Of a stretch of DNA of 64,000 nucleotides, positions 34,574 through 57,021 are shown piece after piece. Below the pieces are notes generated by a model that saw nothing but the letters and a program-made list of their open reading frames with translations, searched no databases and was not told where the DNA came from. Source of the DNA: Puniceicoccaceae bacterium (lineage in GTDB: Bacteria > Verrucomicrobiota > Verrucomicrobiia > Opitutales > Coraliomargaritaceae); assembly GCA_017854655.1 (NCBI GenBank), contig JAFMHF010000003.1, forward strand, positions 645-64,644. The letters are read 5' to 3'. Position 1 is the first letter of the stretch. Each line of letters begins with the position of its first letter. The position numbers and the translations under genes are program-made.

Positions 34574-35941
34574 TTAAAATTTTTCGTATTCGTTGTTCTC
34601 ATTCGAATTGATCTCTGAAAGCGGACGTCCAGCTAAGGCTTCCAGTTCGAAGAAGGCTTTGTTGTATTCGACCAGCGTCTCTGTGTGTCGGATGCGTGCT
34701 TCGGCAAACATCCGTTGTGCGTCGATGACTTCCAGATAACTGGCTTTGCCTTCCTGATACGCACGCCAGGTCTTTTCCTGCACGCTTTGAGATGAGCTTA
34801 AAAGGTTCCGTTCGATGTTCTCCACTTCATCACGCAGGAACTCCAGCTTTCGATGGGTGCTCGTCAACGCGACTAAGGCGTTGATACGGATTGCTCGTGA
34901 GTTTTCATGTGCTTTGCCGAGTTCTTCTCGCGCCTTTCGAATATTACCTTGGTTCCGGTCGAAGAGCGGAAGCGGCACACTGAATTGAACGACGCCGGAT
35001 AGGTTATCGTCCCCGTTGAAGTGTTTGAGTCCGACACCCACGGTCAGATCTGGAATCGCCTTTGACTCTTCAAGAGCAACAACCTGGCGGTGTTGTTCGA
35101 GGAGTGCCGCCCAGCGAAGCATCTCGGGATGACGCTCTAAGGTTTGCTTCAAAGATAGCTGCGTCGGCAGCTGTATTGATTGTCGTAACTTTCCGGACAC
35201 GTGGGAGAACTTAGGATCGTCGCTGCCGTAGAGTTCGGCGAGTTGACGCCTTGCTGCATCCAACTTCCGTTCGGCTTGCCGTGCACTGATTTCTTCAGAT
35301 GCCAAGACAGACTGGGCCTTGAGCTGTTCGAGTGGAGAAGCTTCACCGCTTTCTACCCGCGTTTTCGCTCCATCGAGCGCTTCCGATGCCAGCTTAGCGT
35401 TTTTCTGAAGTAACTCCAATTGCTCCTGAGCCGCTAATACTGAGATAAATGCCTTAGAGACTTCCGTAAGCAGAAGCATACGGGCTTGTTCGTAAGCGAA
35501 TCGACTCACGTCTTCGCTCAACTTTGCAGTCTTTACTCGATGTTTGCGCTTCCCCCCCAATTCAAGCAACTGGCTCAGTAGCACGGTTGATTCCGCATTG
35601 TCGAAACCTGACGTCTCGTCGGAGCCACCGAACTCCTCCGCTTCGACCTCCAGTTCAGGATTTGGAAGGAGTCCTGACTGAAGTGTCTCAGCTTCAGCAA
35701 TCCGGATGTCGATTGCGTATCCCGCTAGTCTAGGGCTGTTGACCAGCGCGTAAGAGTAAGCTTTCCGAAGAGTCAATTCGCCCTGAGGTTCGCCGACGTG
35801 TGGCGGATCAATTGTATTCGCCTGCGCGGCTGAGAGTGTGCCCGCAGCGAAGGAGCAGATCGCAAAGGCAATAGTAAATGGTTTATAGTAGATACATGCG
35901 CGAGTGGGCATGCTTTGTTTACGTTTTGAAAATAGGTGCAT
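34574..35941 (-). CDS. TolC/CzcC-family outer-membrane factor
   Basis: PNPELEV, LELGGKR, PDLTVGVG, VPLPLFDRNQG, YQEGKASYLEVIDAQR. Confidence 0.9.
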   Translation of the reverse strand: MHLFSKRKQSMPTRACIYYKPFTIAFAICSFAAGTLSAAQANTIDPPHVGEPQGELTLRKAYSYALVNSPRLAGYAIDIRIAEAETLQSGLLPNPELEVEAEEFGGSDETSGFDNAESTVLLSQLLELGGKRKHRVKTAKLSEDVSRFAYEQARMLLLTEVSKAFISVLAAQEQLELLQKNAKLASEALDGAKTRVESGEASPLEQLKAQSVLASEEISARQAERKLDAARRQLAELYGSDDPKFSHVSGKLRQSIQLPTQLSLKQTLERHPEMLRWAALLEQHRQVVALEESKAIPDLTVGVGLKHFNGDDNLSGVVQFSVPLPLFDRNQGNIRKAREELGKAHENSRAIRINALVALTSTHRKLEFLRDEVENIERNLLSSSQSVQEKTWRAYQEGKASYLEVIDAQRMFAEARIRHTETLVEYNKAFFELEALAGRPLSEINSNENNEYEKF

Positions 35942-36045: not shown

Positions 36046-36465
36046 TCAGAGACGCAGATTTACGGTCTGCGCGACGAGCACACACGTGTCCATCAACTCC
36101 GGCGGTGCCTGAGCCTGAACAATGTGAGCAATTTCTTTTAACGTAAAATTCGGTGCGGAGACATCGGATCCCGCAGATTGAAGTGCAGTCAAAGTCGGAA
36201 TGGATTCTCCTTTGTCGATGCACACTTGCGGTAGTTCGACTGCTTTAAGTTCAAGGTCCACACAGGAGTCTTCGTCTGAGAAACGACGCTCCTCAGCTAG
36301 TCCGCTAACACACACAGGCGGACAGTCAGAGCATTTGGCGGAGCTCAACTCGGGAGAGAGGTCCGAGCTTTTGTTAAGACACAGCAACAGTCCTCCGACG
36401 CCACCAAAGAGGACGTTCCAAGCAAACAAGCTCAAGAGAGCAACTGCTGTTATTTTGCGTTTCAC
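36046..36465 (-). CDS. CzcI-like exported Cys-rich leader protein with QAPP motif
   Basis: Hydrophobic N-terminus, CSDC, QAPP plus 17 residues ending LRL; first gene of the czcCBA-like operon. Confidence 0.65.
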   Translation of the reverse strand: MKRKITAVALLSLFAWNVLFGGVGGLLLCLNKSSDLSPELSSAKCSDCPPVCVSGLAEERRFSDEDSCVDLELKAVELPQVCIDKGESIPTLTALQSAGSDVSAPNFTLKEIAHIVQAQAPPELMDTCVLVAQTVNLRL

Positions 36466-36710: not shown

Positions 36711-37097
36711 ATGTTTTCTAACTTCATTCATCTGCTGATGGCGCTCGCCATCTTTAATCCGTTCTGCTGTTGCACGGCGGCGGGTTTGTTTGCGGATGAT
36801 TCTGGAGTGGCAGCGATTCCGAGTTGCTGTGAGAGCACTGGCGATCAGCAGAGTTCGCAAGATCAGCATGATCCAGAGAATTGTCCGCACAAAGCTTTAG
36901 ATGACTTCGAAATTACATCTAATAAGGAGGCGGGCACTCACAACTCCACGCTTTCGCTACTTCCAGTGCTTTTTGTTGTTCGCGACTTGCTGGTCTATGA
37001 ACCAGTTGTCGAATTAATTCATCCCAAGGTGCTAGAGTCAGTGCTTGGGTCCCCACCTGTTTCGTTATCACAGGTGTATTGTGTCTATAGGATCTGA
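36711..37097 (+). CDS. CzcI-like exported Cys/His-rich leader protein with GSPP motif
   Basis: Hydrophobic N-terminus, CCC/CC/CPH, GSPP plus 12 residues ending YRI; first gene of the cus-like operon. Confidence 0.65.
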   Translation: MFSNFIHLLMALAIFNPFCCCTAAGLFADDSGVAAIPSCCESTGDQQSSQDQHDPENCPHKALDDFEITSNKEAGTHNSTLSLLPVLFVVRDLLVYEPVVELIHPKVLESVLGSPPVSLSQVYCVYRI

Positions 37098-37198: not shown

Positions 37199-38461
37199 AT
37201 GTATACAAAACACTTTTTTAAGGGTGCCTATCGTGGCACTCAACTAAGCCTTCTATTGGGGCTATCCATTTCAATCGCATATGCGGAGAGTCTGAGTCTC
37301 GACCAAGCGCTTGCACGGGCGGAGTCGAAAAATCCTAGCTTAGAGGCTTTTCGTGAAAGTCGCCTGAGTGCAACGGAGCGCGTTGGCGCTTCGAATGCCT
37401 TGCCGAATCCGAAACTACAAGTTTCCTATTTCGGTGAGTCCGTGGAGACACGAACAGGTTCGCAAGAGGCCATCTATTCGTTTAGCCAGACGGTGCCCTG
37501 GCTGAGTAAGCTCTCTACGCGTAAAGATATCGCCTTGAGTGATGCCAACATGAGTGGCTTTGCCTATGAGCACGCTTTGGCCCAGCTTCAAAGGGAGGTA
37601 ACCATTACTTATGTCGAGCTACTTTATTTGAAGAACTCGGTCATAACGACAGAGCAGAACTTAGGGCTCATACAGGACATGCGTTCTATCGTAGAGGAGC
37701 AAGTCAGCGGCGGGGCTTCGGTTAATTCCATGCTTCGTCTGGAGCTGGAGTATGAGCGAAAGCGAGATGATCTGGATAAACTCGAACAGGAGCGAATCGA
37801 ACAACGCCATCGATTAGCTGCCTTGCTTGCGATGCCAGAAGCTCAGCTCTCTTTAGCTGGTGAACTAGAAGGGGTTGGGCCGTCAGTAGACAACGCAAGC
37901 TCGTTCCATCGGAAACTAGTTGAAAATAACCCTGAGCTGCTGGCTCTACGTCAAAGTAGCATTCGAGCTAGCCAGCAAGCGGAGTTGAGCCGATTGGCAC
38001 GTCGTCCTGATTTCACGGTGGGGCTGAACTACATTCAAGTCGATGGCAGCGGTATCGCGGCGCGAGATGCAGGCAAGGATCCATGGAATGTCTCTTTGGC
38101 CGTCAGTCTCCCGATTTGGGCGGGGAAGGATCGTGCCAACATACGTGCGACCAAGGCAAACAGGCGTTCTGTAGACAGCTCCTACCTCAATAGAGAGTTG
38201 GCACTAAAGGCCGAGCTGAGTGCAACGCTGGCGTCCTTTCAGGATAGCGCGAGGCGTATGCAACGCTACGAGGAGACGCTGATCCCGCTGGCGGACCAAG
38301 CTTTGGATAATTCGAGAGCCGCCTACGAGAGCGACCAGCTCAGTGCTCTGGAAATGATCGATAGCGAGCGCTCCTTGCTCGAACTGAAACTGAACTACTG
38401 GCGAGCCGCCGCAAACGCGCGTCAAGCGGTCGCCAAAATCAACGCCCTGATCGGCGAATAA
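37199..38461 (+). CDS. TolC/CusC-family outer-membrane factor
   Basis: LPNPKL, QTVPWLSKL, RPDFTVGLNY, VSLPIW, LEMIDSER. Confidence 0.88.
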   Translation: MYTKHFFKGAYRGTQLSLLLGLSISIAYAESLSLDQALARAESKNPSLEAFRESRLSATERVGASNALPNPKLQVSYFGESVETRTGSQEAIYSFSQTVPWLSKLSTRKDIALSDANMSGFAYEHALAQLQREVTITYVELLYLKNSVITTEQNLGLIQDMRSIVEEQVSGGASVNSMLRLELEYERKRDDLDKLEQERIEQRHRLAALLAMPEAQLSLAGELEGVGPSVDNASSFHRKLVENNPELLALRQSSIRASQQAELSRLARRPDFTVGLNYIQVDGSGIAARDAGKDPWNVSLAVSLPIWAGKDRANIRATKANRRSVDSSYLNRELALKAELSATLASFQDSARRMQRYEETLIPLADQALDNSRAAYESDQLSALEMIDSERSLLELKLNYWRAAANARQAVAKINALIGE

Positions 38462-45841: not shown

Positions 45842-46765
45842 CTAAGAACTGCAATTTGCTCCGCCTTTGATATTGTGGCAGCGATTTTCCGCTGATTCGA
45901 ATTCTAGGGTGCTGTGGTGAATCGAAAAGTGTTCTCTCAAGTAGGTTTTGACCGTCTCCTTGATTGATTCCAGTTCCTCCATGCTGGAGGCTTCCCCGAT
46001 CACGACATGCGCCTCAAGTGCACGGTGATGTTCGTCGAGCTCCCACACGTGGATATGGTGCACATTTTCGATTCCATCGAGGTTTTGCAAGGCCTCCTTG
46101 ATCTCATCCACAGAGAGATTGGTGGGGGTGCCTTCCATCAGGATACGCGAGGTTTTCTTTAACATGCCAAATGACATATAGAGTATATATCCCGCGATGA
46201 TGAGTGTGATAAGGGGATCCACCCAAGTCCAATCGAGCCATAGAATCGCAGCGCCGCCAAGCAAGACGGCGACTGAAGCACCGGCGTCGGTCAGGTTATG
46301 TAGGAACGCTGCCTTCACATTTAGGCTTCCCTTGGACATCGACCACAGGAGCCAAGCGGTAATTACATCCACCACGAGTGCGACGCCAGCCGCTGTCATG
46401 ATCCAGCCCCCAAGTAGTGGCTCGGGGTCGAAGAATCGGCGCACCGCCTCGTAGATGAGGTATAGCCCTACGAGTATCAGTGCGGTCAACTGGATCATCG
46501 CGCCGATCAGCTCGGCTCGTCGATACCCGAAAGTATATTGCTCGTCAGCACCCTTGCGGGAAATCTTACGGGCAATATAGGCGATGAGCAGTGCCGCAGC
46601 ATCATTGGTATTATGCAGCGCATCGGCCATCAAGGCCACGCTCCCCGAGATCGCCCCAGCGACAAATTCGAAGACCGAGAGTCCTAAATTAACAATGACC
46701 GTCCACAATAGAACGCCGTCGCTGACATTTTCAGTGCCGTGAGAGTGGTTGTGATCGTGTCCCAT
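45842..46765 (-). CDS. czcD: CzcD/ZitB-type cation diffusion facilitator
   Basis: His-rich N-terminus, ADALHNTND, TFGYRRAE, AFLHNLTD, DPLIT, HIHVWELD, HSTLEFE. Confidence 0.9.
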   Translation of the reverse strand: MGHDHNHSHGTENVSDGVLLWTVIVNLGLSVFEFVAGAISGSVALMADALHNTNDAAALLIAYIARKISRKGADEQYTFGYRRAELIGAMIQLTALILVGLYLIYEAVRRFFDPEPLLGGWIMTAAGVALVVDVITAWLLWSMSKGSLNVKAAFLHNLTDAGASVAVLLGGAAILWLDWTWVDPLITLIIAGYILYMSFGMLKKTSRILMEGTPTNLSVDEIKEALQNLDGIENVHHIHVWELDEHHRALEAHVVIGEASSMEELESIKETVKTYLREHFSIHHSTLEFESAENRCHNIKGGANCSS

Positions 46766-46833: not shown

Positions 46834-47451
46834 TTAATGGTCGTGTCCTTCGTGACTATCTTCTCCGTGTTCGCAGACACAGGCATACTCCTTGTATTTG
46901 CAAGTCGGGCAGTCGCTGAGGTTTAGATTGAATTTCTCGCGAACGGTTTTCGATTTCGCATCTGCCTTAATCGAGAGAACGATCGGTAGGTTGTTACCCT
47001 CTGGCAGAGCTTTATCGGACAGTAGAACGCTGCCTTTCTTCGTGAAGCGTAGACGGACAGGGTTTTGACGGTCACCACCTATAAGCGAGAGCGCCTGATC
47101 TTTCGGAGCGACAGCTTTGCCGTCGTCATTGAGGAACGTGATCTGTATGAGTCGCGTATCAGTCACGAAGAATTCTAGATGGGGTTCAACCGATGTGATG
47201 ATACGACCGCCATTGGGGCCTGCTTTCACATCGCCATGGTCGTGCTCATCATGATCGTCTTCGTGAGCCTCGTGGTCATGGTCGGAGTGGTCCTCTTCTG
47301 GCTTTGCCTTGGCATGCGCTGCATGATCGTGGCCTTCGTGAGCAGAATGGTCATGGTCCGCATCATTTCCGTGGTGATCCGCATAGCTGGTGCTCCACGA
47401 AAGCAAAGCGAATGTGATCAACGTAGTGAGTAGTGTTTTTTTGTATTTCAT
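46834..47451 (-). CDS. Exported His-rich putative metallochaperone
   Basis: Signal peptide, HxxHxH-rich tract, AGPNGGR domain, C-terminal CPTCKYKEYACVCEH. Confidence 0.75.
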   Translation of the reverse strand: MKYKKTLLTTLITFALLSWSTSYADHHGNDADHDHSAHEGHDHAAHAKAKPEEDHSDHDHEAHEDDHDEHDHGDVKAGPNGGRIITSVEPHLEFFVTDTRLIQITFLNDDGKAVAPKDQALSLIGGDRQNPVRLRFTKKGSVLLSDKALPEGNNLPIVLSIKADAKSKTVREKFNLNLSDCPTCKYKEYACVCEHGEDSHEGHDH

Positions 47452-47479: not shown

Positions 47480-50400
47480 TTATTCAGACGCAGCAGATTT
47501 GCGTTGGACGGATGTTTCCGCCGACTTGCGGCAGAAGGTGTAGAAAATCGCAGGCGTCACACCGAGCCCCAGTAGGGTGGAGGTGACGAGGCCTCCGACG
47601 ATGACGACTGCAATTGGATTTAGGATTTCTTTTCCCGGTTCATCGGTTGCTAAGAGAAGCGGCACCAGAGCAAGGCCAGCAGAGATTGCAGTCATGAGAA
47701 TCGGGATTAGGCGTTCCTGCGTGCCTCGTTCGACCATCTTTCGGGTAAATCGCTCGCCTTCATGGCGCATTAGGTGAAGATAGTGCGAAATCAGCATAAT
47801 ATTATTACGCGCCGCAATCCCACTCACCGCGATGAAACCGACAAGAGTGGCGATACTAATATTGTTCAGCGTCATCCCCGTCAGGAATATACTGCCAACT
47901 AGAGAGATCGGCACGATGGTGAAGACTAGTAGCACAAACGCAAAATTCTTGAAGTAACTGTAGAGTAGAAACGAGATGACCAAGAGCACGATTGCCGATG
48001 TGATCAGAATCGTCCGTTTTGCTTTGGCCTGTGCTTCATATTCGCCTTCGTAAGAGAGCGTATAGCCTTCAGGGAGCTTCACCCGTTCGTTGACCTCGCG
48101 CTGCAACTCCTCGACCGCGGCATTCAAGTCGTCGACGGTCGGATTGATGGAAACCACAAAACGTCTCACGGTGTTTTCCCGCAAGATGTTGTTGGGCCCC
48201 GTCGCGTGCCTTATATCCGCGACATAACTGAGTGGGATTCGCTGCCCGCTCAGAGTGTCAATGTAGAGCTTCGATAGTTTTTGGGGTGATTCTCGCCACT
48301 CCAATGGCAAGCGTATGACTAGGTCGTAGACGCGTTGCCCTTCGTAGATTTCACTCACAGCTTCGCCTCCCATGAGCGCAGAGAGTTCCGCATTGAGGGC
48401 ACCTGGTGTCACTCCATAAGCCATGGCGCGTTTACGATCCACCTCGATTCGAAGTTGTGGGATGGGTGCCTGCTGCTCGACACGTGCTTCTTCCATTCCC
48501 GGCACTTCGCGTGCGATCTCGGCAATTTCAGTGCCGATGCGACGCAACTCATCCAAATCGGGGCCGAAGACCTTAACGGCTACCTTGGCTGAGACACCAC
48601 TGAGCATGTGACCGATACGGTCTGCCAATGGCCCGCTGAGCGCACTAAAAGTTCCAGGGATGGTCTGCATGGTGCTGCGAATATCTTCCAAGATCTCGCT
48701 ACGTTCACGCTTCACGTCGTGAGTGAATTCGATGTCGATTTCCACGGTCGAGACAGGCACAACATGATCCCCACGTTCGGCGCGGCCGACCCGATAGCCG
48801 ACTGTTTCAATTTCAGGGATCTTCAGTAGTAGATCCTGAGCGGTATCGGCTAGTTCACGTGTTTGTTTAAGTGAGGTTCCTGGAGCTGTCGTCATGGCGA
48901 CTAGAACGGTAGGCTCCCGAAATGCCGGCAGGAAGTTGCCGCCCATTTTTGTAAATGAGATGCCTGCAGCCACAACAAGTGCTCCCGTTGCGAACAGCAC
49001 AATCAATGGTTGCGAGAGTGAAAAACGCAACCAAGTCACATTGAACAGTTTCTTGAAACCTCGCTCGATGACACCGTCTGCATGCTTTTGCCCCGCTTTG
49101 GGCTTCAGCAAATACGAACTCAGAACTGGTATCACTGTGAGTGAAACGAGAAAGGACGCTGCCATACTGACAATAGTAGCGACTGCAATCGGAGTGAACA
49201 GTCGCCCCTCGACCCCGCTCAGAGCCATCAGCGGCAAGAAAACCAGAATAATCAGCACGGTTGCATATAAGATCGAGGATCGGACTTCGGCAGATGCTTT
49301 GGCGATGACCTCTAGTCTATTTCGTGGTTCATCGAGCATCGCATTCTCCCGTAGTCGTCGGAATACGTTCTCGACATCCACAATGGCATCATCGACCACC
49401 ATACCAATGGCCACCGCAAGCCCACCGAGTGTCATTGAGTTGACGCTCAAATCCAAGAGGCCAAATACCAGCACTGTCATTCCTAAAGATAATGGAATCG
49501 CGGTGAGAGTAATCAGTGTGATACGCACATTCAGTAAGAAAAGGAACAAGATCACGGCCACCATGATGGCACCATCACGCAAGGCTTCTTCCAGATTCCC
49601 CACGGCAAGGTCGATGAAGTCGGACTGACGATACAATGTCACAAGTTCCACGCCCTCGGGCATTGAGGTTTTCAAATCCTCCAACGCGGCTTCGACTTGA
49701 TCGGTGAGTGCCAATGTGTCGAACCCAGGGGACTTCGTGACGCTTAGGATCACGCCGGGATAGCCCTTCGTGTCCGCGTCATCCAATAGCTTGGTTCCCA
49801 TGCCTGCATCTCCGCGCATCGGTTCGATGTCCCAAGCAACTGTAGCGACATCTTTGATACGGATCGGGCGATCATTGACGTGTGTGACCACCGTATTACC
49901 AATTGCATCGAGGTCTGTCGTCATGGCTAGGTTGCGCACCATAATCTCTTGGGCGGACTCGGTTAGAAAGCCTCCAGTTCGATTACTCACCGCATTGGCG
50001 GCAGCTTCTCGAAGTGCTTCGTAGTCAATCCCCAACGCCAACATTTTATCTGGATTGGGCTGAACTTGCAGTTGTTTGACACCGCCCCCCATGCCGAGCA
50101 CTTCAGCCACCCCAGGGATGGATTGCAGACGCCTGGAGACCGTCCAGTCGGCAATGGTTCGAAGGTCCATCGGCTCTGTGTTCCCCGATGGGTCAACGAG
50201 TCCTACCAGCATGATATTGCCCATTAAGGAGGCGACTGGCGTCATGTAAGGGCTGACCCCATCCGGAAGTGTTTCACTGGCTCCTGTTAGGCGCTCCTGC
50301 ACGAACTGACGTGCTTGATAGATATCGGTGCCCCATTCGAATTCGATGAAGATCAAGGAAAGGCCAATATCGTTTACCGATCGTAGACGCGTCACGCCAG

Positions 50401-50629
50401 TGACTCCCATCAATGAGTTTTCAAGTGGTATGGTTACCAGGGTTTCGACTTCTTCAGGGGAGAAACCTGCGGATTCCGTGAGAATCGTGACGGTTGGCTT
50501 GGTTAAGTCCGGCAGCACTTCAACAGGAAGCTCGCTGGCTGTTTTGATGCCTAAGATGAAGAGCACCAAGGCCAGTGCTAATATGAGTGGCCTTTGCGAA
50601 AGCGAAAACTGAATGAGCTTATTAAGCAT
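47480..50629 (-). CDS. CusA/CzcA-family heavy-metal RND permease (third system)
   Basis: LPVEVLPD, IGMVVDDAIVDVEN, EGRLFTPIA, RLIPILMTA, GKEILNPIA. Confidence 0.9.
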   Translation of the reverse strand: MLNKLIQFSLSQRPLILALALVLFILGIKTASELPVEVLPDLTKPTVTILTESAGFSPEEVETLVTIPLENSLMGVTGVTRLRSVNDIGLSLIFIEFEWGTDIYQARQFVQERLTGASETLPDGVSPYMTPVASLMGNIMLVGLVDPSGNTEPMDLRTIADWTVSRRLQSIPGVAEVLGMGGGVKQLQVQPNPDKMLALGIDYEALREAAANAVSNRTGGFLTESAQEIMVRNLAMTTDLDAIGNTVVTHVNDRPIRIKDVATVAWDIEPMRGDAGMGTKLLDDADTKGYPGVILSVTKSPGFDTLALTDQVEAALEDLKTSMPEGVELVTLYRQSDFIDLAVGNLEEALRDGAIMVAVILFLFLLNVRITLITLTAIPLSLGMTVLVFGLLDLSVNSMTLGGLAVAIGMVVDDAIVDVENVFRRLRENAMLDEPRNRLEVIAKASAEVRSSILYATVLIILVFLPLMALSGVEGRLFTPIAVATIVSMAASFLVSLTVIPVLSSYLLKPKAGQKHADGVIERGFKKLFNVTWLRFSLSQPLIVLFATGALVVAAGISFTKMGGNFLPAFREPTVLVAMTTAPGTSLKQTRELADTAQDLLLKIPEIETVGYRVGRAERGDHVVPVSTVEIDIEFTHDVKRERSEILEDIRSTMQTIPGTFSALSGPLADRIGHMLSGVSAKVAVKVFGPDLDELRRIGTEIAEIAREVPGMEEARVEQQAPIPQLRIEVDRKRAMAYGVTPGALNAELSALMGGEAVSEIYEGQRVYDLVIRLPLEWRESPQKLSKLYIDTLSGQRIPLSYVADIRHATGPNNILRENTVRRFVVSINPTVDDLNAAVEELQREVNERVKLPEGYTLSYEGEYEAQAKAKRTILITSAIVLLVISFLLYSYFKNFAFVLLVFTIVPISLVGSIFLTGMTLNNISIATLVGFIAVSGIAARNNIMLISHYLHLMRHEGERFTRKMVERGTQERLIPILMTAISAGLALVPLLLATDEPGKEILNPIAVVIVGGLVTSTLLGLGVTPAIFYTFCRKSAETSVQRKSAASE

Positions 50630-51827
50630 CCGACGCCTCGCTTTCCTTTTGTCGACGCTTCAAGAGCATCTGCGTGGTAACTAACGCGAAGAGCGTCACT
50701 AATCCCGCATATATCATGAGTGGCTTAGTGAGAGCTCCACTGGCTTTAGAGTTCTCAGCATGGCCATGATCGTCTGGATCGCCAGAGGCACTGTCTTCCT
50801 CGGTCAGCTCGGATCCATCTTCGGCATGGGCATGCCCATGAGCAGCATCAAGTGCTTCCTTGAGTGACATACCTGAGCCTCCACCGACAAAACTGAGTGC
50901 ATAGGAACCCTGTGCAACGACTTCATCGCCTGGGAATACCCCGTTGAGCACTTCGACATATGCGTCGTTTTCTCCGCCGAGTGTGACGGGGACTCGAATG
51001 AAGGCATTTGGCAGCTCATAGTCTTTAACAAAAACGACTCGGCTGGCGGGGTCTCCTTGAATTGCAGTGCGTGGAACTGAGAGGACAAAAGGCTGTGAAT
51101 CGAGCACGACAGAGAATTCTGCCCGCATGCCAGGACGCAATTTTCCATCTACGTTATCTAATTCAAAAATCGCTTCGATGGTGCCTGCCTCGCGGTCTGC
51201 TTCGACGCCAAAGCGTGTCAGTTCGGCTTCGAACACCTCATCGCCGAGTGCTGGGATGTGAATTCGTGCAGCAGTCCCAATCGCGACTTGAGCCGCTTCT
51301 TGTTCCGGGATTTTGGCCACAGCCCACAACTTTGAGCGGTCTGAAATATCCAGTAATTCGGCCGATGGCTCCACTGGTTGTCCAAGTCTGACATGTGAGG
51401 CGACGACTAAGCCACCTTGAGGTGCCTTGAGCTCCACACTGGGCGGTGGATCCCCCAACTGACGACTTTCGACGACAGCCAAAACTTCGCCTGCCTCAAC
51501 GGTATCGCCTTCGAACGCATTCAGTGCGCTGACCCGCCCTGCAATACGTGATGACAGGACTGAGCGACTGGACGGAATTTCTTCGATGCGTCCGATCGCG
51601 AAGACTGTGGTTTCAAAGTCACGCTCCTCGGCCTCTTCAGTTTGAATGCGGAGGTTTTTGACCGCAATCTCGTCTAGAATGATTGTATTTTGTGCACGCG
51701 CTTCTTCAGCTGCGTGTATTGTGGAGATTGAGAGTAGAGAAAGGAAAATTATGCTATTTAGTTTCATTGGAAAGGTCTCCGATAGAGTGAGTCGAAAGGT
51801 TGCGAGCAGTAGCTGCGCGCCATTCAA
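50622..51827 (-). CDS. RND periplasmic adaptor; likely start near 51767 (MKLNS)
   Basis: LKAPQGG, LWAVAKIPE, LRPGMRAEF, VVAQGSY; His-containing tail with C-terminal TM. Confidence 0.85.
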   Translation of the reverse strand: MNGAQLLLATFRLTLSETFPMKLNSIIFLSLLSISTIHAAEEARAQNTIILDEIAVKNLRIQTEEAEERDFETTVFAIGRIEEIPSSRSVLSSRIAGRVSALNAFEGDTVEAGEVLAVVESRQLGDPPPSVELKAPQGGLVVASHVRLGQPVEPSAELLDISDRSKLWAVAKIPEQEAAQVAIGTAARIHIPALGDEVFEAELTRFGVEADREAGTIEAIFELDNVDGKLRPGMRAEFSVVLDSQPFVLSVPRTAIQGDPASRVVFVKDYELPNAFIRVPVTLGGENDAYVEVLNGVFPGDEVVAQGSYALSFVGGGSGMSLKEALDAAHGHAHAEDGSELTEEDSASGDPDDHGHAENSKASGALTKPLMIYAGLVTLFALVTTQMLLKRRQKESEASDA

Positions 51828-53052
51828 TCAAGATTTGCTCGAGCTCATGCCAGAGATCGAGTTGAGCGGTTTGGATGTTTAAGTGCTGTTCTTGCACTCG
51901 AAAGACTTCGCCGAGGTCGACGAGTCCAGCAGCATACGCTGCATTGATGTCTTTGTGGTTTTGCTCCACCAACTTCAGTGCGCTTTCTTTGTAGGTGGAC
52001 GCTTGTTTATAGGCTGCAGCGGCATTACTGCGCAGTGCTTCAGCATCGTTTTGTAACTGCAGCGACATAGCGTTCATCTCATGGTAAATCTGCTTTTCGC
52101 GAAAGCGACTGGCTTCAACTTCACCACGGTAATTACTCCGGAGGGGGAGTGGAATCGAGACACCGATCCCGAAGAAACGATCTCGACCTAAACCATCCGG
52201 CTCATCGACGGATTTCTCTTCTTCAAAGAAAATTTCTACTGCGATGTCAGCCCAGCGACTGGCTTTAGCCAAATTTGTTTGCTCCTGCGCGATATCCGCA
52301 AGTAAGGCTCGAAGTTGATACTCGGGATGCTGCTTTAGGTCATCCAAGTTGAATGCTTCCATCTCAGGTAGCGTTGGCATTTGGACTGAATCGGCGAGCA
52401 CCTCTAGCTCACGATCTGGCTCAAGGCCAAGGAGGCTACGTAAGTCTCCAAGTGCTCGATTACGTTCTTTCGTCCGATTTTCAATCTCCTGCTTTACTGA
52501 AAACAGTGCGACACGCACCTGATTCAAAGCGAGTGTCGACGCCTCGCCAGCGTCGATTCTCTTCTCCATAAATGCCGCAAATTCCTCCTGCAGCCGAATC
52601 ATTCCACTCAGCAGAGACAGTTGTTTGTCGAGACTGGCGATCAGTGCCATAGAGCCTTCGACATCGCGTATCAGCAACCTCTGCTGATTGAGAAGTTCCG
52701 CCTCGGCGAGTTTGACCTCAATGGCAGAGACGTTCTTTAGTCGCTTGAGTCGATTGGTAATCGGAAAGCGTTGCTCGAAGCCAATGGAGTAAGACTGTTC
52801 CCCCTCATCGTTGAAAGCGCGATCGGACGCATAACCCAAATTGAGTTCAGGGTTGTCGAGCCTGCCTGCGTATTGCGAGTAAGCACCCGCTTCATTAATT
52901 GCAGAACGAGCAGCCTGTAACGACTGGTTCTTCTGCAAAGCCAGTGCAACAGCGTCTTGGCTTGTGAGTTTTAGAGAGCTCTCTGGCGTAGCATATGCCA
53001 GAGAAGCGTAGAAAATGAATAATGTTGTCAGTAAATAGTTATATGTGTGCAT
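51754..53052 (-). CDS. TolC-family outer-membrane factor
   Basis: LDNPELNL, EQRFPIT, GVSIPLPL, YAAGLVDLGEV. Confidence 0.88.
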   Translation of the reverse strand: MHTYNYLLTTLFIFYASLAYATPESSLKLTSQDAVALALQKNQSLQAARSAINEAGAYSQYAGRLDNPELNLGYASDRAFNDEGEQSYSIGFEQRFPITNRLKRLKNVSAIEVKLAEAELLNQQRLLIRDVEGSMALIASLDKQLSLLSGMIRLQEEFAAFMEKRIDAGEASTLALNQVRVALFSVKQEIENRTKERNRALGDLRSLLGLEPDRELEVLADSVQMPTLPEMEAFNLDDLKQHPEYQLRALLADIAQEQTNLAKASRWADIAVEIFFEEEKSVDEPDGLGRDRFFGIGVSIPLPLRSNYRGEVEASRFREKQIYHEMNAMSLQLQNDAEALRSNAAAAYKQASTYKESALKLVEQNHKDINAAYAAGLVDLGEVFRVQEQHLNIQTAQLDLWHELEQILIEWRAATARNLSTHSIGDLSNETK

Positions 53053-53150
53053 GAAAAAACCTGTTTAGTTGAAATCGTCATAAGACACGTTCGAACGTGC
53101 CAAAGTCACACGAAGGAAATCCTACGTGCATATTTCACTAATCAGGTTTT
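53053..53150 (-). promoter_or_regulatory. Structured 96-nt spacer; arm over the stop codon (53132-53150) pairs with the tolC initiation region (53056-53075)
   Basis: mRNA AAAACCUGAUUAGUGAAAU is complementary to AUUUCAACUAAACAGGUUUU (one mismatch, one bulge); internal palindrome CACGTTCGAACGTG. Confidence 0.65.
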
Positions 53151-53607
53151 AAATTCGGAGCACTGTCGTGCGCACACACTGCTCTAATGTGCCACAGAAA
53201 ATGGGTGGCGCTCGTGTCGCTAAACGTATCTGAGGAGCCGCGTTTGCTTTAATGATCGGAACAAATAGCTGATACGAGTGGTTTGCGGCTACTGGTTTCT
53301 TAATCGAAATAAAATCAGCGACTCGCTGTATCGGCTCATTCGATGAGCTGATCAAAATGTCGATGCAGTGTTGGTCACTAACTGCAGAAAGGCCATCATC
53401 TGCTTCGCCGGAATGGGAATCGTGATTGTGTGATTCCGTCTCATGTCCATGGCATGTGTCACCATGATCAGAGTGTTGCCCCGTGAGCACATGACCAAAA
53501 TTATGATCATGCAGGCACAGCACCGCCCCACCAGCAGTAGCTAGTAGGCCGTTCATTGCCATCATCAGGGTAAGGCAATATGCTGTGTATTTTTTTAACA
53601 TGAACAA
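53149..53607 (-). CDS. CzcI-like exported His/Cys-rich leader protein with RAPP motif
   Basis: Hydrophobic N-terminus, LCLHDH and His-rich middle, TRAPP plus 17 residues ending LRI; first gene of the third RND operon. Confidence 0.7.
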   Translation of the reverse strand: MFMLKKYTAYCLTLMMAMNGLLATAGGAVLCLHDHNFGHVLTGQHSDHGDTCHGHETESHNHDSHSGEADDGLSAVSDQHCIDILISSSNEPIQRVADFISIKKPVAANHSYQLFVPIIKANAAPQIRLATRAPPIFCGTLEQCVRTTVLRI

Positions 53608-53813
53608 GTTGGAATGAATACAGCTCGGAATTATTCCAAGTCAATAGCGATTTCCGATCGCCAGATTTGAATTTGTGATCAATGCAGTGCAATATGCCTG
53701 TGCGTTCCAGAGCCGATGTGAGCATCAGTTTAAATTATGAAATATGCGCCTACGTCATTTACATGCTCTTGATCGACTGGATCTAACCAAACGCTACGAT
53801 CCAAATACTGGCA

Positions 53814-54038
53814 TTAGTCGCTGTCTTTTTCGAGGTGTTCCTCCATTTTACACTCCACGTATATCAATTCTTCGCGGATAAAGAAATCTGGGACGTATGT
53901 GACCTTAGTCATTCGTCCATACATAAGGCCTAGTAACTCGGAATGGTAAGGCTGTGAGCTCCATATCCGTATCTCAAATCCATTATTGCCCGATAGGTTA
54001 AGAGGGTTCCCAGTCTCTGGACTAGGCCTCTTGAGCAT
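53814..54038 (-). pseudogene. TnsA-like endonuclease N-terminal fragment
   Basis: SQP...YVPDFFIR...YVECK matches the TnsA-type Y.PDF...E.K motif; truncated after about 74 aa; no tnsB/C nearby. Confidence 0.4.
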
Positions 54039-54768
54039 TTTTCAGTTTCTTTGGCTTGCGGGTCTTTTTTACTTTTCGTTTCTTGGGATTTAATTTGAGA
54101 AACGCCTTAGCTTCTTTTTCGGCCTCCTTCATCGATTCTGAGAATTCTTCTACTTTCCACTTTCGCCAGCGGTCTCCGAATAACTGGTCGGTAGCTTCCG
54201 GAACTTGATCAGCCATAGCCCGCGCAAGTTCATTGACCGTGGGCTCCATTTTTTTGCCTTTGTCATCTCGTTGAAGTCCGATAGCCGCATTTATTTTATC
54301 AAGTTCTGTTCCTAGAAAAAAGAGGGTGGAAAGAAAGCCAAGACCCTCCCGATCTACAAGCAAATCGATAGTCTCCTCAAACCGCGTTTGGATAATATTT
54401 ACGATGTCATTCCTCCAAACCTGACTAGCGAAATTAAATGAACTTTGGTAATTCCTATAGTCATGTTTGGTGAATTTACCAGATTCACCGTTCGGCCTAA
54501 GCTGGTTCTGTAACAGACGTTTCGGAGAAACTCCGGTGACTGCAGCGATTCGGTAAGCATTTTCTGCGCTCAAGCCGCCACCATTGCCGTCCTGCCTCTT
54601 AATCAGCGTCTTGTATGAGTTGATTTTGATATTACAGAGCGCAGCAAACTCCGTTTGCGATAAGCCAGTAACCTTGCGAAGGCGCTCAACTGAAGAGTTT
54701 GGATAGGCGTTTTTTTTGTCTGTCTGGTCTTTCATCTTAATGGTGCTCATGTGGACAGTCTCACTCAA
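54022..54768 (-). CDS. XRE-like HTH transcriptional regulator
   Basis: VERLRKVTGLSQTEFAALCNI...LSAENAYRIAAVTG; divergent from the integrase operon. Confidence 0.7.
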   Translation of the reverse strand: MSETVHMSTIKMKDQTDKKNAYPNSSVERLRKVTGLSQTEFAALCNIKINSYKTLIKRQDGNGGGLSAENAYRIAAVTGVSPKRLLQNQLRPNGESGKFTKHDYRNYQSSFNFASQVWRNDIVNIIQTRFEETIDLLVDREGLGFLSTLFFLGTELDKINAAIGLQRDDKGKKMEPTVNELARAMADQVPEATDQLFGDRWRKWKVEEFSESMKEAEKEAKAFLKLNPKKRKVKKTRKPKKLKNAQEA

Positions 54769-54852: not shown

Positions 54853-55206
54853 ATGCGCAATGCAGTAGACAGTTTAGGAAGCGAAGAGCGCCTCGGTGAG
54901 ATCGGCGAGATCCTCTCCCGTGGCGTCGAGCTACTCCTGCAATCGCGCGTGCGAGTTATCGAAAAAGAAACCACAAGAAATGAAGAACTAAATGGCGAGG
55001 CTCACGAAGTAGTCCACGACAGCCCCATTATTCAAATGACGACAAGGTTCGGCTCAATCTCGACAGCGGACGTGATCGAAAAAATGGGGATGACTCGTTC
55101 AACGGCACGTCGTCGCCTCGCCGAACTGGTCGATTCTGGAGATCTGGTTGCTGAGGGCAAAGGTCGTGGAGCTCGCTACCGCGTCGCCTCCAAATCTGGA
55201 AACTAA
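54853..55206 (+). CDS. Small winged-HTH protein, candidate recombination directionality factor or regulator
   Basis: N-terminal EERLGEIGEILSRG; C-terminal wHTH ISTADV...STARRRLAELVDSG...GKGRGARY; 18 nt upstream of the recombinase. Confidence 0.6.
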   Translation: MRNAVDSLGSEERLGEIGEILSRGVELLLQSRVRVIEKETTRNEELNGEAHEVVHDSPIIQMTTRFGSISTADVIEKMGMTRSTARRRLAELVDSGDLVAEGKGRGARYRVASKSGN

Positions 55207-55224
55207 AAATTAAAATAGAACACT

Positions 55225-57021
<1,797 letters not shown>

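Follow-up and report, generated by a model that had tools for sequence, protein, structure and literature searches.

The 64,000-nt stretch analyzed here, hereafter the window, covers positions 645 to 64,644 of contig JAFMHF010000003.1 from Puniceicoccaceae bacterium (GenBank assembly GCA_017854655.1) and encodes on its minus strand a 150-residue leader protein at the head of a czcCBA-like heavy-metal efflux operon. The leader carries the arginine-alanine-proline-proline (RAPP) sequence known from ribosome-arrest peptides, and the RNA between its stop codon and the first pump gene, which encodes a TolC-like outer-membrane factor (OMF), is predicted to fold into a three-way junction that sequesters that gene's Shine–Dalgarno (SD) sequence. 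We conclude that the leader is probably a cis-acting arrest leader of the CruR/CutF kind that governs the efflux operon through this SD-sequestering junction, and that it would control translation of the operon and possibly also transcriptional read-through. From the region upstream of the leader to the start of the OMF gene, the locus comprises the following features (coordinates count from the first letter of the window):

53615..53644, minus strand: possible promoter, TTGACT at 53644-53639, an 18-nt spacer and TATTCA at 53620-53615, picked out by reading
53149..53601, minus strand: leader open reading frame (ORF), 150 aa plus UAA stop, with homologues found
53512..53601, minus strand: N-terminal basic and hydrophobic segment, MLKK...GGAVLCL, from family alignments and an AlphaFold2 helix at residues 2-21
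53520-53509, minus strand: conserved LCLH motif, with C29 and H31 invariant in the alignments
53368..53511, minus strand: His/acidic-rich variable region, residues 31-78, containing H37 (invariant in alignment A4) and C50 (at least 90% in alignments A1 and A2)
53353..53370, minus strand: HCIDIL block with invariant C79 and D81, from family alignments
53203..53214, minus strand: RAPP (R130, A131, P132, P133), putative ribosome-arrest core, from sequence and family conservation
53152..53202, minus strand: conserved 17-residue tail IFCGTLEQCVRTTVLRI, with the final TVLRI at 53166-53152, conserved at the peptide level
53149..53151, minus strand: UAA stop of the leader, both A's being the first paired bases of the closing helix
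53132..53150, minus strand: 5′ arm of the closing helix P1, with the anti-SD CCUG at 53146-53143, from folding and covariation
53108..53129, minus strand: inner hairpin 1 of the three-way junction, a hairpin of varying sequence being predicted here in every locus
53084..53101, minus strand: inner hairpin 2 of the three-way junction, from folding
53056..53075, minus strand: 3′ arm of P1, with the OMF SD CAGG at 53063-53060 and the start of a U-tract (53059-53054), from folding and covariation

Minus-strand sequence and translation show the leader running from an ATG at 53601 to a UAA at 53151-53149; the ORF list starts the frame at TTG 53607, and the N-terminus of the family favors the ATG. The protein, MLKKYTAYCLTLMMAMNGLLATAGGAVLCLHDH...HCIDIL...RAPPIFCGTLEQCVRTTVLRI, begins with a segment that is a putative signal peptide or membrane anchor and continues into a region in which 11 His and 10 Asp/Glu occupy 48 residues (31-78). 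A preliminary description of this DNA had reported an exact RAPP motif and a His-rich middle in the leader, and both are present: the motif is encoded by CGA GCG CCA CCC at 53214-53203 and is followed by 17 further codons, placing it away from the C-terminus. The accompanying suggestion that the His-rich middle marks a different metal from that of Cys-rich leaders is plausible, because the operon includes a ZitB/CzcD-like cation diffusion facilitator (CDF) gene. AlphaFold2 prediction for the leader, run on 34 sequences, yielded no confident fold (predicted local distance difference test score 48, predicted template modeling score 0.18), with helices only at residues 2-21 and 137-145, as would be expected of a sensor peptide rather than a stable domain.

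The leader belongs to a family without informative annotation. Sequence search returned 27 homologues, all unnamed or labeled hypothetical, whose named sources are Opitutales or Opitutaceae metagenome-assembled genomes (MAGs). Profile search of 1.84 billion 50%-identity representatives recovered 53 family members, and a second profile search of 5.8 billion proteins recovered 50, of which none carries a Pfam domain or an informative name. Pfam and NCBIfam scans of the window protein, 18 close homologues and 42 diverse members assigned no family above threshold, and sub-threshold matches of family members to Peptidase_M43 and StpX were discarded as noise. The window protein matches Pfam DUF2946 (PF11162) at 12.8 bits (E = 0.2), below the gathering cut-off of 23.7; this weak match spans leader residues 39-133 and profile positions 24-117 of 117, terminating exactly on RAPP. 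Sub-threshold DUF2946 matches also occur in six of the 18 close homologues (best E = 0.039) and two of the 42 diverse members, and neither the 5.8-billion-protein profile search nor precomputed Pfam domains provided a bridge between the leader family and DUF2946.

Conservation within the family is concentrated in a few residues and in two fixed spacings. Motif counts and spacings were taken from 52 50%-identity representatives recovered by the profile search independently of the motif; a degenerate DNA pattern, R[AG]PP-x12-TVLRx-stop, presupposes the motifs and was therefore not used for motif frequencies. A PP pair is present in 40 of the 52 representatives, preceded by RA in 23 of these (RAPP) and by RG in 4 (RGPP), and in 31 of the 40 it is followed by exactly 17 aa up to the C-terminus. 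In a second ruler, the CxD block precedes the Arg of R[AG]PP by 51-53 residues in 31 of 35 representatives (52±1) across a linker whose sequence is not conserved and whose spacing is kept. With overall identity of 20-30%, alignment A4 retains C29, H31, H37, C79, D81, R130, P132 and P133 as invariant positions; V147 and L148 are also kept family-wide, and C50, T146 and R149 are nearly invariant. The candidate ligands conserved across the family are thus C29, H31, H37, C50, C79 and D81, not the His-rich stretch. Codon use at 29 distinct loci includes five Arg codons and all four Pro codons within R[AG]PP and four to six synonymous codons at each position of TVLR[ILV], and because synonymous codons vary in this way the constraint falls on the peptide and not on the RNA. 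Members without PP retain the tail, including L050, which has RTTP in place of RAPP. Ribosome collision spacing was considered as a reason for the 17-codon ruler and rejected by reasoning only, as the 18 codons between P sites are not a multiple of the disome spacing of ~10 codons.

The intergenic RNA is conserved as a structure. A stem of ~19 bp, described earlier as running from the UAA to 3 nt before the OMF AUG, was recovered as an 18-bp helix, P1, that extends from the AA of UAA over three segments with single-nucleotide bulges and closes a three-way junction rather than a simple hairpin. The junction has a predicted stability of -33.6 kcal/mol (z = -4.8 against dinucleotide shuffles), which none of 200 shuffles equaled. 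In all loci the anti-SD begins 0-6 nt past the leader stop and pairs with the SD region, which lies 5-9 nt ahead of the OMF AUG, and two hairpins lie between the arms of P1. The arms themselves vary across loci, with 5′ examples CCUGAU, CUCCUGAU, CCUAAU, CCAAAU, UCUGAA and CCAAUUG and 3′ examples AUCAGG, AUCAGGAG, AUUAGG, AUUUGG, UUCAGA and UAUUGG. In a 23-sequence alignment both sides changed at nine of ten P1 pairs, cells were paired in 82.7% of cases versus 22-59% when the partner was slid by 1-3 columns, and the covariation score was reached by none of 500 shuffles. These compensatory changes and the pairing with the OMF SD support the proposed anti-initiation stem. The PP-less member L050 keeps the tail, a 95-nt spacer and the same junction (z = -4.6).

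Other pairings are also possible in the region. The leader tail codons GUGUGUGC (53178-53171) can pair with the first OMF codons (AUG CAC ACA) through GCACACAU (53050-53043), and pairing between the last leader codons and first OMF codons is predicted in several subgroups; this is suggestive only, because both strands are coding. The preliminary description had also pointed to a hairpin between GCCAC on the PP codons (53209-53205) and GUGGC (53195-53191). The pairing is possible (5 bp, 9-nt loop) and appears in the minimum free energy fold, but as a specific feature it was rejected: the duplex lies at chance level (z = -0.43 against composition-matched shuffles; mean z = -0.58 over 29 loci) and disappears in orthologues that use the Cys codon UGC instead of UGU. 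Searching 52950-53700 on both strands against Rfam 15, including metal riboswitches such as NiCo/czcD, gave no family match at E <= 10, the sole match being a spurious snoU13 on the opposite strand. Separately, a co-occurring strain variant in metatranscriptome X27 carries changes confined to inner hairpin 1 (53102-53126), namely six substitutions and a deletion of 2 nt; the pattern corresponds to an orthologue-type hairpin sequence, so that hairpin 1 is kept as its sequence drifts.

We next asked where a ribosome would have to stand to open the closing helix. The 29 loci were folded with a ribosome-sized stretch kept single-stranded, using a footprint that reached from -12 to +15 nt relative to the P site. 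On average, the SD arm was paired with a probability of 0.89 in free RNA; placing the ribosome on RAPP left this at 0.89, without a change in any of the 29 loci, and placing it on the stop codon lowered it to 0.46, with a decrease in all 29. When RAPP peptides arrest, the P site is occupied by the first Pro and the A site by the second (PMC10951233). For the window, this position puts the leading edge of an arrested ribosome near 53193, with the anti-SD at 53146-53143, ~55 nt downstream of the P site. The constrained-folding result therefore argues that an arrested ribosome cannot open the stem and that a terminating ribosome can, which does not support the SecM-like geometry implied by the preliminary description.

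RNA from this locus occurs in nature. The region was found in many marine metagenomes and more than 15 metatranscriptomes, and we examined assembled contigs, not reads, from eight metatranscriptome runs, in which 5′ and 3′ ends are approximate. In these eight, the leader, intergenic region and OMF start lie on one RNA (for example, contigs 52852-53589 and 52916-53585). In seven of the eight runs leader contigs stop at 53585-53594, within the ORF by 7-16 nt, and in none do they reach further upstream, which suggests that the leader mRNA is leaderless or has a very short leader. The leader ATG is preceded by no SD. One leader contig terminates in adapter sequence. Translation starting at Met13 or Met14 instead would give a leader protein without the basic n-region. 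A sigma-70 scan and a simple terminator scan found nothing beyond chance on the relevant strand and called neither the possible promoter nor P1 with its U6 tract; the TATTCA part of the possible promoter is conserved in orthologues. Leader contigs are equal in depth to OMF contigs or up to 5-fold deeper (115 vs 63; ~15-46 vs 2-9; 4.6 vs <=3; ~31 vs 20-45). U6 directly follows P1, and contigs break at 53040-53048 in three of the eight runs, with a ~2-fold depth drop in two, whereas in five runs they continue through the site. Partial termination after P1-U6 may occur on top of SD masking.

From the geometry we tentatively favor, at somewhat under even confidence, a mechanism in which RAPP arrest acts as a brake, released by metal, on SD unmasking that is coupled to termination. 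By default, the ribosome would arrest on the motif, Pro132 occupying the P site and Pro133 the A site. Because this position lies ~55 nt upstream of the anti-SD, the closing helix would stay formed and the pump genes off. The last ligand pair, C79-x-D81, would then be just outside the exit tunnel or in the translocon, and metal bound to the conserved Cys/His/Asp ligands of the nascent chain would relieve the arrest. The released ribosome would read the 17-codon tail, halt on UAA, cover the anti-SD and free the OMF SD and AUG, and metal would thereby turn the pump on through translational coupling by unmasking. The TVLR[ILV] tail may lengthen the dwell at the stop codon or tag the released protein for degradation. 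Metal should relieve the arrest because the downstream target is an efflux pump. In translational coupling generally, a ribosome ending an upstream frame melts the helix that hides the SD of the next gene; the difference here is that ribosome flow to the stop would be gated by an arrest motif 17 codons upstream. We infer the arrest, the metal binding, the direction of the response and the compartment in which metal is sensed from sequence.

Several observations weigh against a metal-relieved brake. Neither the 17-residue spacing nor the peptide-level conservation of TVLR[ILV] is required by it, and a few PP-less members keep the tail and RNA structure, which implies that the brake is dispensable in some lineages. 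Both paralogous leaders in the window have QAPP or GSPP and so are without the Arg of RAPP. CutF stalls in the presence of metal, the opposite direction. The footprint used in folding is a textbook value and was not derived from these ribosomes, and contig depth is a poor measure of RNA level. An extension that accommodates the tail is a two-step gate-then-latch, in which a TVLR[ILV]-stop module would come after metal-gated RAPP arrest and keep the ribosome over the anti-SD as it terminates; we regard it as speculative and rather unlikely. Its persistence in members that lost PP would make the tail module the older, core element, a suggestion we make with the same reserve. A gate-then-latch efflux switch is not known to have been described for any arrest peptide.

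Other arrangements of the same parts would assign the ribosome, the protein or the RNA a different role. The reading closest to the preliminary description is a CutF/SecM-type switch, in which metal on the exported nascent chain would prolong RAPP arrest and the arrested ribosome would turn the pump on by rearranging the RNA. Hairpins involving the RAPP codons are predicted in many loci, and in the subgroup L004/L040/L041 they beat shuffles (z = -2.8 to -3.9), but the window's own RAPP hairpin is at chance (z = -0.43), RAPP lies 17 codons before the stop with the anti-SD starting ~55 nt downstream of the P site, SD pairing holds at 0.89 in every one of the 29 loci when the ribosome is put on RAPP, and we found no conserved alternative pairing that could pass the arrest on to P1; we consider this switch quite unlikely. 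Arrest at the termination site would move the critical event downstream, with the C-terminal 21 residues, R[AG]PP-x12-TVLR[ILV], filling the tunnel and holding the ribosome on the stop, the anti-SD kept under its footprint, the pump on, and R[AG]PP acting inside the tunnel instead of at the peptidyl-transferase centre. The strict 17-residue spacing (31 of 40), the retention of TVLR[ILV] as peptide with four to six codons per position, the persistence of tail and RNA architecture in PP-less L050 with its RTTP, the short AlphaFold2 helix at residues 137-145 and the finding that a ribosome on the stop is the SD-freeing state all suit such an arrest, and stop-codon arrest is reported for other peptides (for example, PMC11890864). 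RAPP and RGPP are nevertheless well established as peptidyl-transferase-centre arrest cores (PMC10951233, PMC12992588), the conservation of exactly RAPP and RGPP argues for arrest at that site, and no known termination-arrest peptide resembles TVLR[ILV]; arrest at the stop codon seems improbable.

The leader might instead be an ordinary accessory protein, a CzcI-like mature periplasmic or membrane metal-binding protein whose stem provides coupling for stoichiometry and whose RAPP causes a mild pause. Conserved Cys/His/Asp ligands would serve such a protein, its C-terminal L-R-[ILV] could serve for recognition of the completed chain, and a metal-sensing regulatory role is presumed for CzcI (cited in PMC9973294), which is located upstream of czcCBA in Cupriavidus and has no proline motif. 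Against this, bacterial proteomes strongly avoid RAPP and RGPP except where they serve arrest (PMC12992588), the motif and the 52±1 spacing from CxD are conserved despite an unconserved linker, AlphaFold2 gives no fold, and the anti-SD lies directly past the stop in every locus, and we accordingly give an accessory role little credence. We find it highly unlikely that the RNA acts chiefly by transcription attenuation, with P1 and the U-tract forming an intrinsic terminator set by the position of the leader ribosome, although attenuation could coexist with translational masking. An A-tract, helix and U6 are laid out in the expected order (AAAACCUG...CAGGUUUUUU), most loci have a U-tract, and the contig breaks described above fall 7-9 nt or slightly more past the helix; conversely, the terminator would be an 80-nt three-way junction rather than a compact hairpin, several loci are without a U-tract (L008, L019), contigs pass through the site in five runs, and the breaks come from assembled contigs and not from read ends.

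Metal-sensing arrest leaders as a general idea, which the preliminary description had invoked, have published precedents in CruR (PMC9426467) and CutF (PMC9973294; bioRxiv 10.1101/2025.02.05.636593). CruR (Bp2923 of Bordetella pertussis, a DUF2946 protein) is arrested at RAPP, Cu relieves the arrest, and a CXXC motif is fixed 45 aa before RAPP (PMC9426467). Like the leader, it is a small exported protein that heads a metal-homeostasis operon and acts in cis on the next gene (PMC9426467), it places a Cys metal motif at a fixed distance from RAPP (45 aa in CruR, 52±1 in the leader family), and its relief by metal is the direction we favor for the leader. In contrast, RAPP lies three residues from the C-terminus of CruR and 17 from that of the leader family. 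CruR acts through Rho-dependent termination ahead of the gene for a TonB-dependent importer, the intergenic region measuring 162 nt, and metal turns the gene off, whereas the leader family has an anti-SD helix after the stop and an efflux-pump target that metal should turn on. The leader family also falls below the DUF2946 threshold (12.8 vs 23.7 bits).

CutF of Rhodobacter capsulatus, which is DUF2946-like, shares with the leader Sec targeting (putative here), Cys/His ligands, a C-terminal proline stalling motif and a stem-loop between the sensor gene and the next gene that shields the SD, and the most frequent downstream neighbors of CutF-like genes are OEP/RND (resistance-nodulation-division) efflux genes (PMC9973294). 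CutF differs in having PPP near its C-terminus and depending on elongation factor P, and Cu-induced stalling melts its stem directly; in the leader family, by the constrained folding, the arrested ribosome does not reach the stem. CutF-like proteins were defined by a length of at most about 150 aa with a signal peptide, Cys/His ligands, PP in the last 15 residues and an intergenic SD-shielding structure (PMC9973294). The leader has 150 aa, a conserved basic n-region with a hydrophobic segment and a predicted helix at residues 2-21, putative metal ligands in C29, H31, H37, C50, C79 and D81, and an SD-shielding intergenic region of 96 nt in the window and 84-104 nt in the family, but 17 residues follow its PP, and the last-15-residue rule leaves the family out.

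Compared with RAPP-type arrest peptides, the conserved R-[A/G]-P-P core is present in the leader, but its arrest site is too distant in 29 of 29 loci to disrupt the SD-sequestering structure. As in ApdA, ApdP, ApcA and the Streptomyces lividans set, R-[AG]-P-P occurs in a small protein with an N-terminal localization signal upstream of a regulated gene (PMC7897499, PMC10951233, PMC10987492, PMC12992588); what the RAPP/RGPP peptides studied so far sense is Sec/YidC activity and not metals. Arrest is robust with RAPP or RGPP as the core and defective with AAPP (PMC12992588). Supplementary tables of that study list small ORFs with RAPP (530) or RGPP (415) that lie upstream of ‘TolC family protein’ genes, most with the motif at a distance of -2 to -7 from the C-terminus, and one member of the leader family (L015, JAABVD010000042.1, distance -18) is among the entries, although the Opitutia family, the tail and the RNA junction are not discussed there. 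Supplementary file 72 of PMC12992588 contains other RAPP-before-TolC outliers 13-25 residues from the C-terminus (for example, -25, -24, -22 and -16), sometimes two per genome, and other long-tailed leader families may exist outside Opitutia. CzcI of Cupriavidus metallidurans is likewise a small protein encoded immediately upstream of a czcCBA-type operon, and PMC9973294 cites it as a presumed metal-sensing regulator, but it lacks a C-terminal proline motif (PMC9973294); this comparison is by description, not sequence. Overall, SecM, CruR and CutF arrest a few codons from their ends, and the leader RAPP lies 17 codons from its stop. Metal-sensing arrest leaders (CruR/CutF) and RAPP-containing upstream ORFs before TolC genes are thus already published; what is new is a separate family, phylum and geometry, with a displaced RAPP, two fixed rulers and a conserved tail module.

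Five same-strand genes follow the leader, the first beginning 96 nt past its stop, and two paralogous leaders lie elsewhere in the window, head to head and 245 nt apart, each ~100 nt upstream of its own OEP gene:

51754..53052, minus strand: OMF gene, TolC-like, PF02321, the first regulated gene, with its AUG at 53052
50622..51827, minus strand: membrane-fusion protein, CzcB/CusB type, from Pfam/NCBIfam
47480..50629, minus strand: CusA/CzcA-family heavy-metal RND pump, TIGR00914 at 771 bits (cut-off 701)
46834..47451, minus strand: 205-aa ORF without a Pfam or NCBIfam match, between the RND pump and the CDF gene
45842..46765, minus strand: CDF transporter, ZitB/CzcD-like, from Pfam/NCBIfam
36046-36465, minus strand: paralogous leader of 139 aa, with QAPP and 17 residues ending NLRL, and its OEP gene at 35941..34574
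36711-37097, plus strand: paralogous leader of 128 aa, Cys-rich, with GSPP and ending VYRI, and its OEP gene at 37199..38461

A three-way junction of the same design, its anti-SD next to the leader stop, accompanies the paralogue at 36465..36046. The 205-aa ORF is called in the same position in the Opitutales genome L001 and appears, from its sequence context, to be a conserved operon member. On the upstream side of the leader are a helix-turn-helix protein (54768..54022, minus strand), a winged-helix protein (54853-55206, plus strand) and a 598-aa large serine recombinase (55225-57021, plus strand), and the efflux locus may lie at the edge of an integrative element; the upstream neighbors in L001 differ and comprise an extracytoplasmic function sigma factor, a Metal_resist protein and a MauE/DoxX protein.

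The arrangement of leader and pump gene recurs across the family, which supports the leader as a conserved upstream frame of a metal-efflux operon. The pattern R[AG]PP-x12-TVLRx-stop gave 47 matches in 185,579 species genomes, of which ~30 are true by N-terminal and CxD features; the others, from unrelated phyla, are short stop-interrupted frames in about the number expected by chance. True members are nearly all Verrucomicrobiota, mainly Opitutia (Opitutales, Puniceicoccales, Cerasicoccus arenae, Thalassobacterium sedimentorum, Pelagicoccus, Coraliomargarita, Lentimonas and Pelagisphaera), with L023 labeled Verrucomicrobiia only. Two members, L022 and L047, lie on short MAG contigs labeled Yoonia sp. 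and Gammaproteobacteria, which are probably mis-binned Opitutales DNA; the L047 protein closely resembles that of the window. A 414-442-aa ORF follows on the same strand 84-104 nt past the leader stop in every locus with enough downstream DNA. Twenty of these downstream ORFs match the window OMF by BLASTP, and of five that do not, L004 and L044 were scanned with Pfam and are both OEP. A Coraliomargarita MAG (L035) encodes an OMF with 97.8% identity to the one in the window.

Metal-sensing arrest leaders have been recognized only recently, and the two that have been studied, CruR and CutF, respond to metal in opposite ways. In the present family, conserved in the phylogenetically distant marine Opitutia, the arrest motif stands 17 codons away from the RNA that it would control, and a second conserved peptide module is located at the stop codon. 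This arrangement offers a clean test of whether RAPP arrest can serve as a brake on translational coupling instead of a helix opener, and Cerasicoccus arenae, Thalassobacterium sedimentorum and Pelagicoccus spp. are cultured hosts in which the family occurs. Searches that demand a proline motif within the last 15 residues overlook whole families of this kind. Within a single genome, three paralogous leaders with differing Cys/His content head three efflux operons, and they form a natural set for the question of whether metal specificity is set by the leader.

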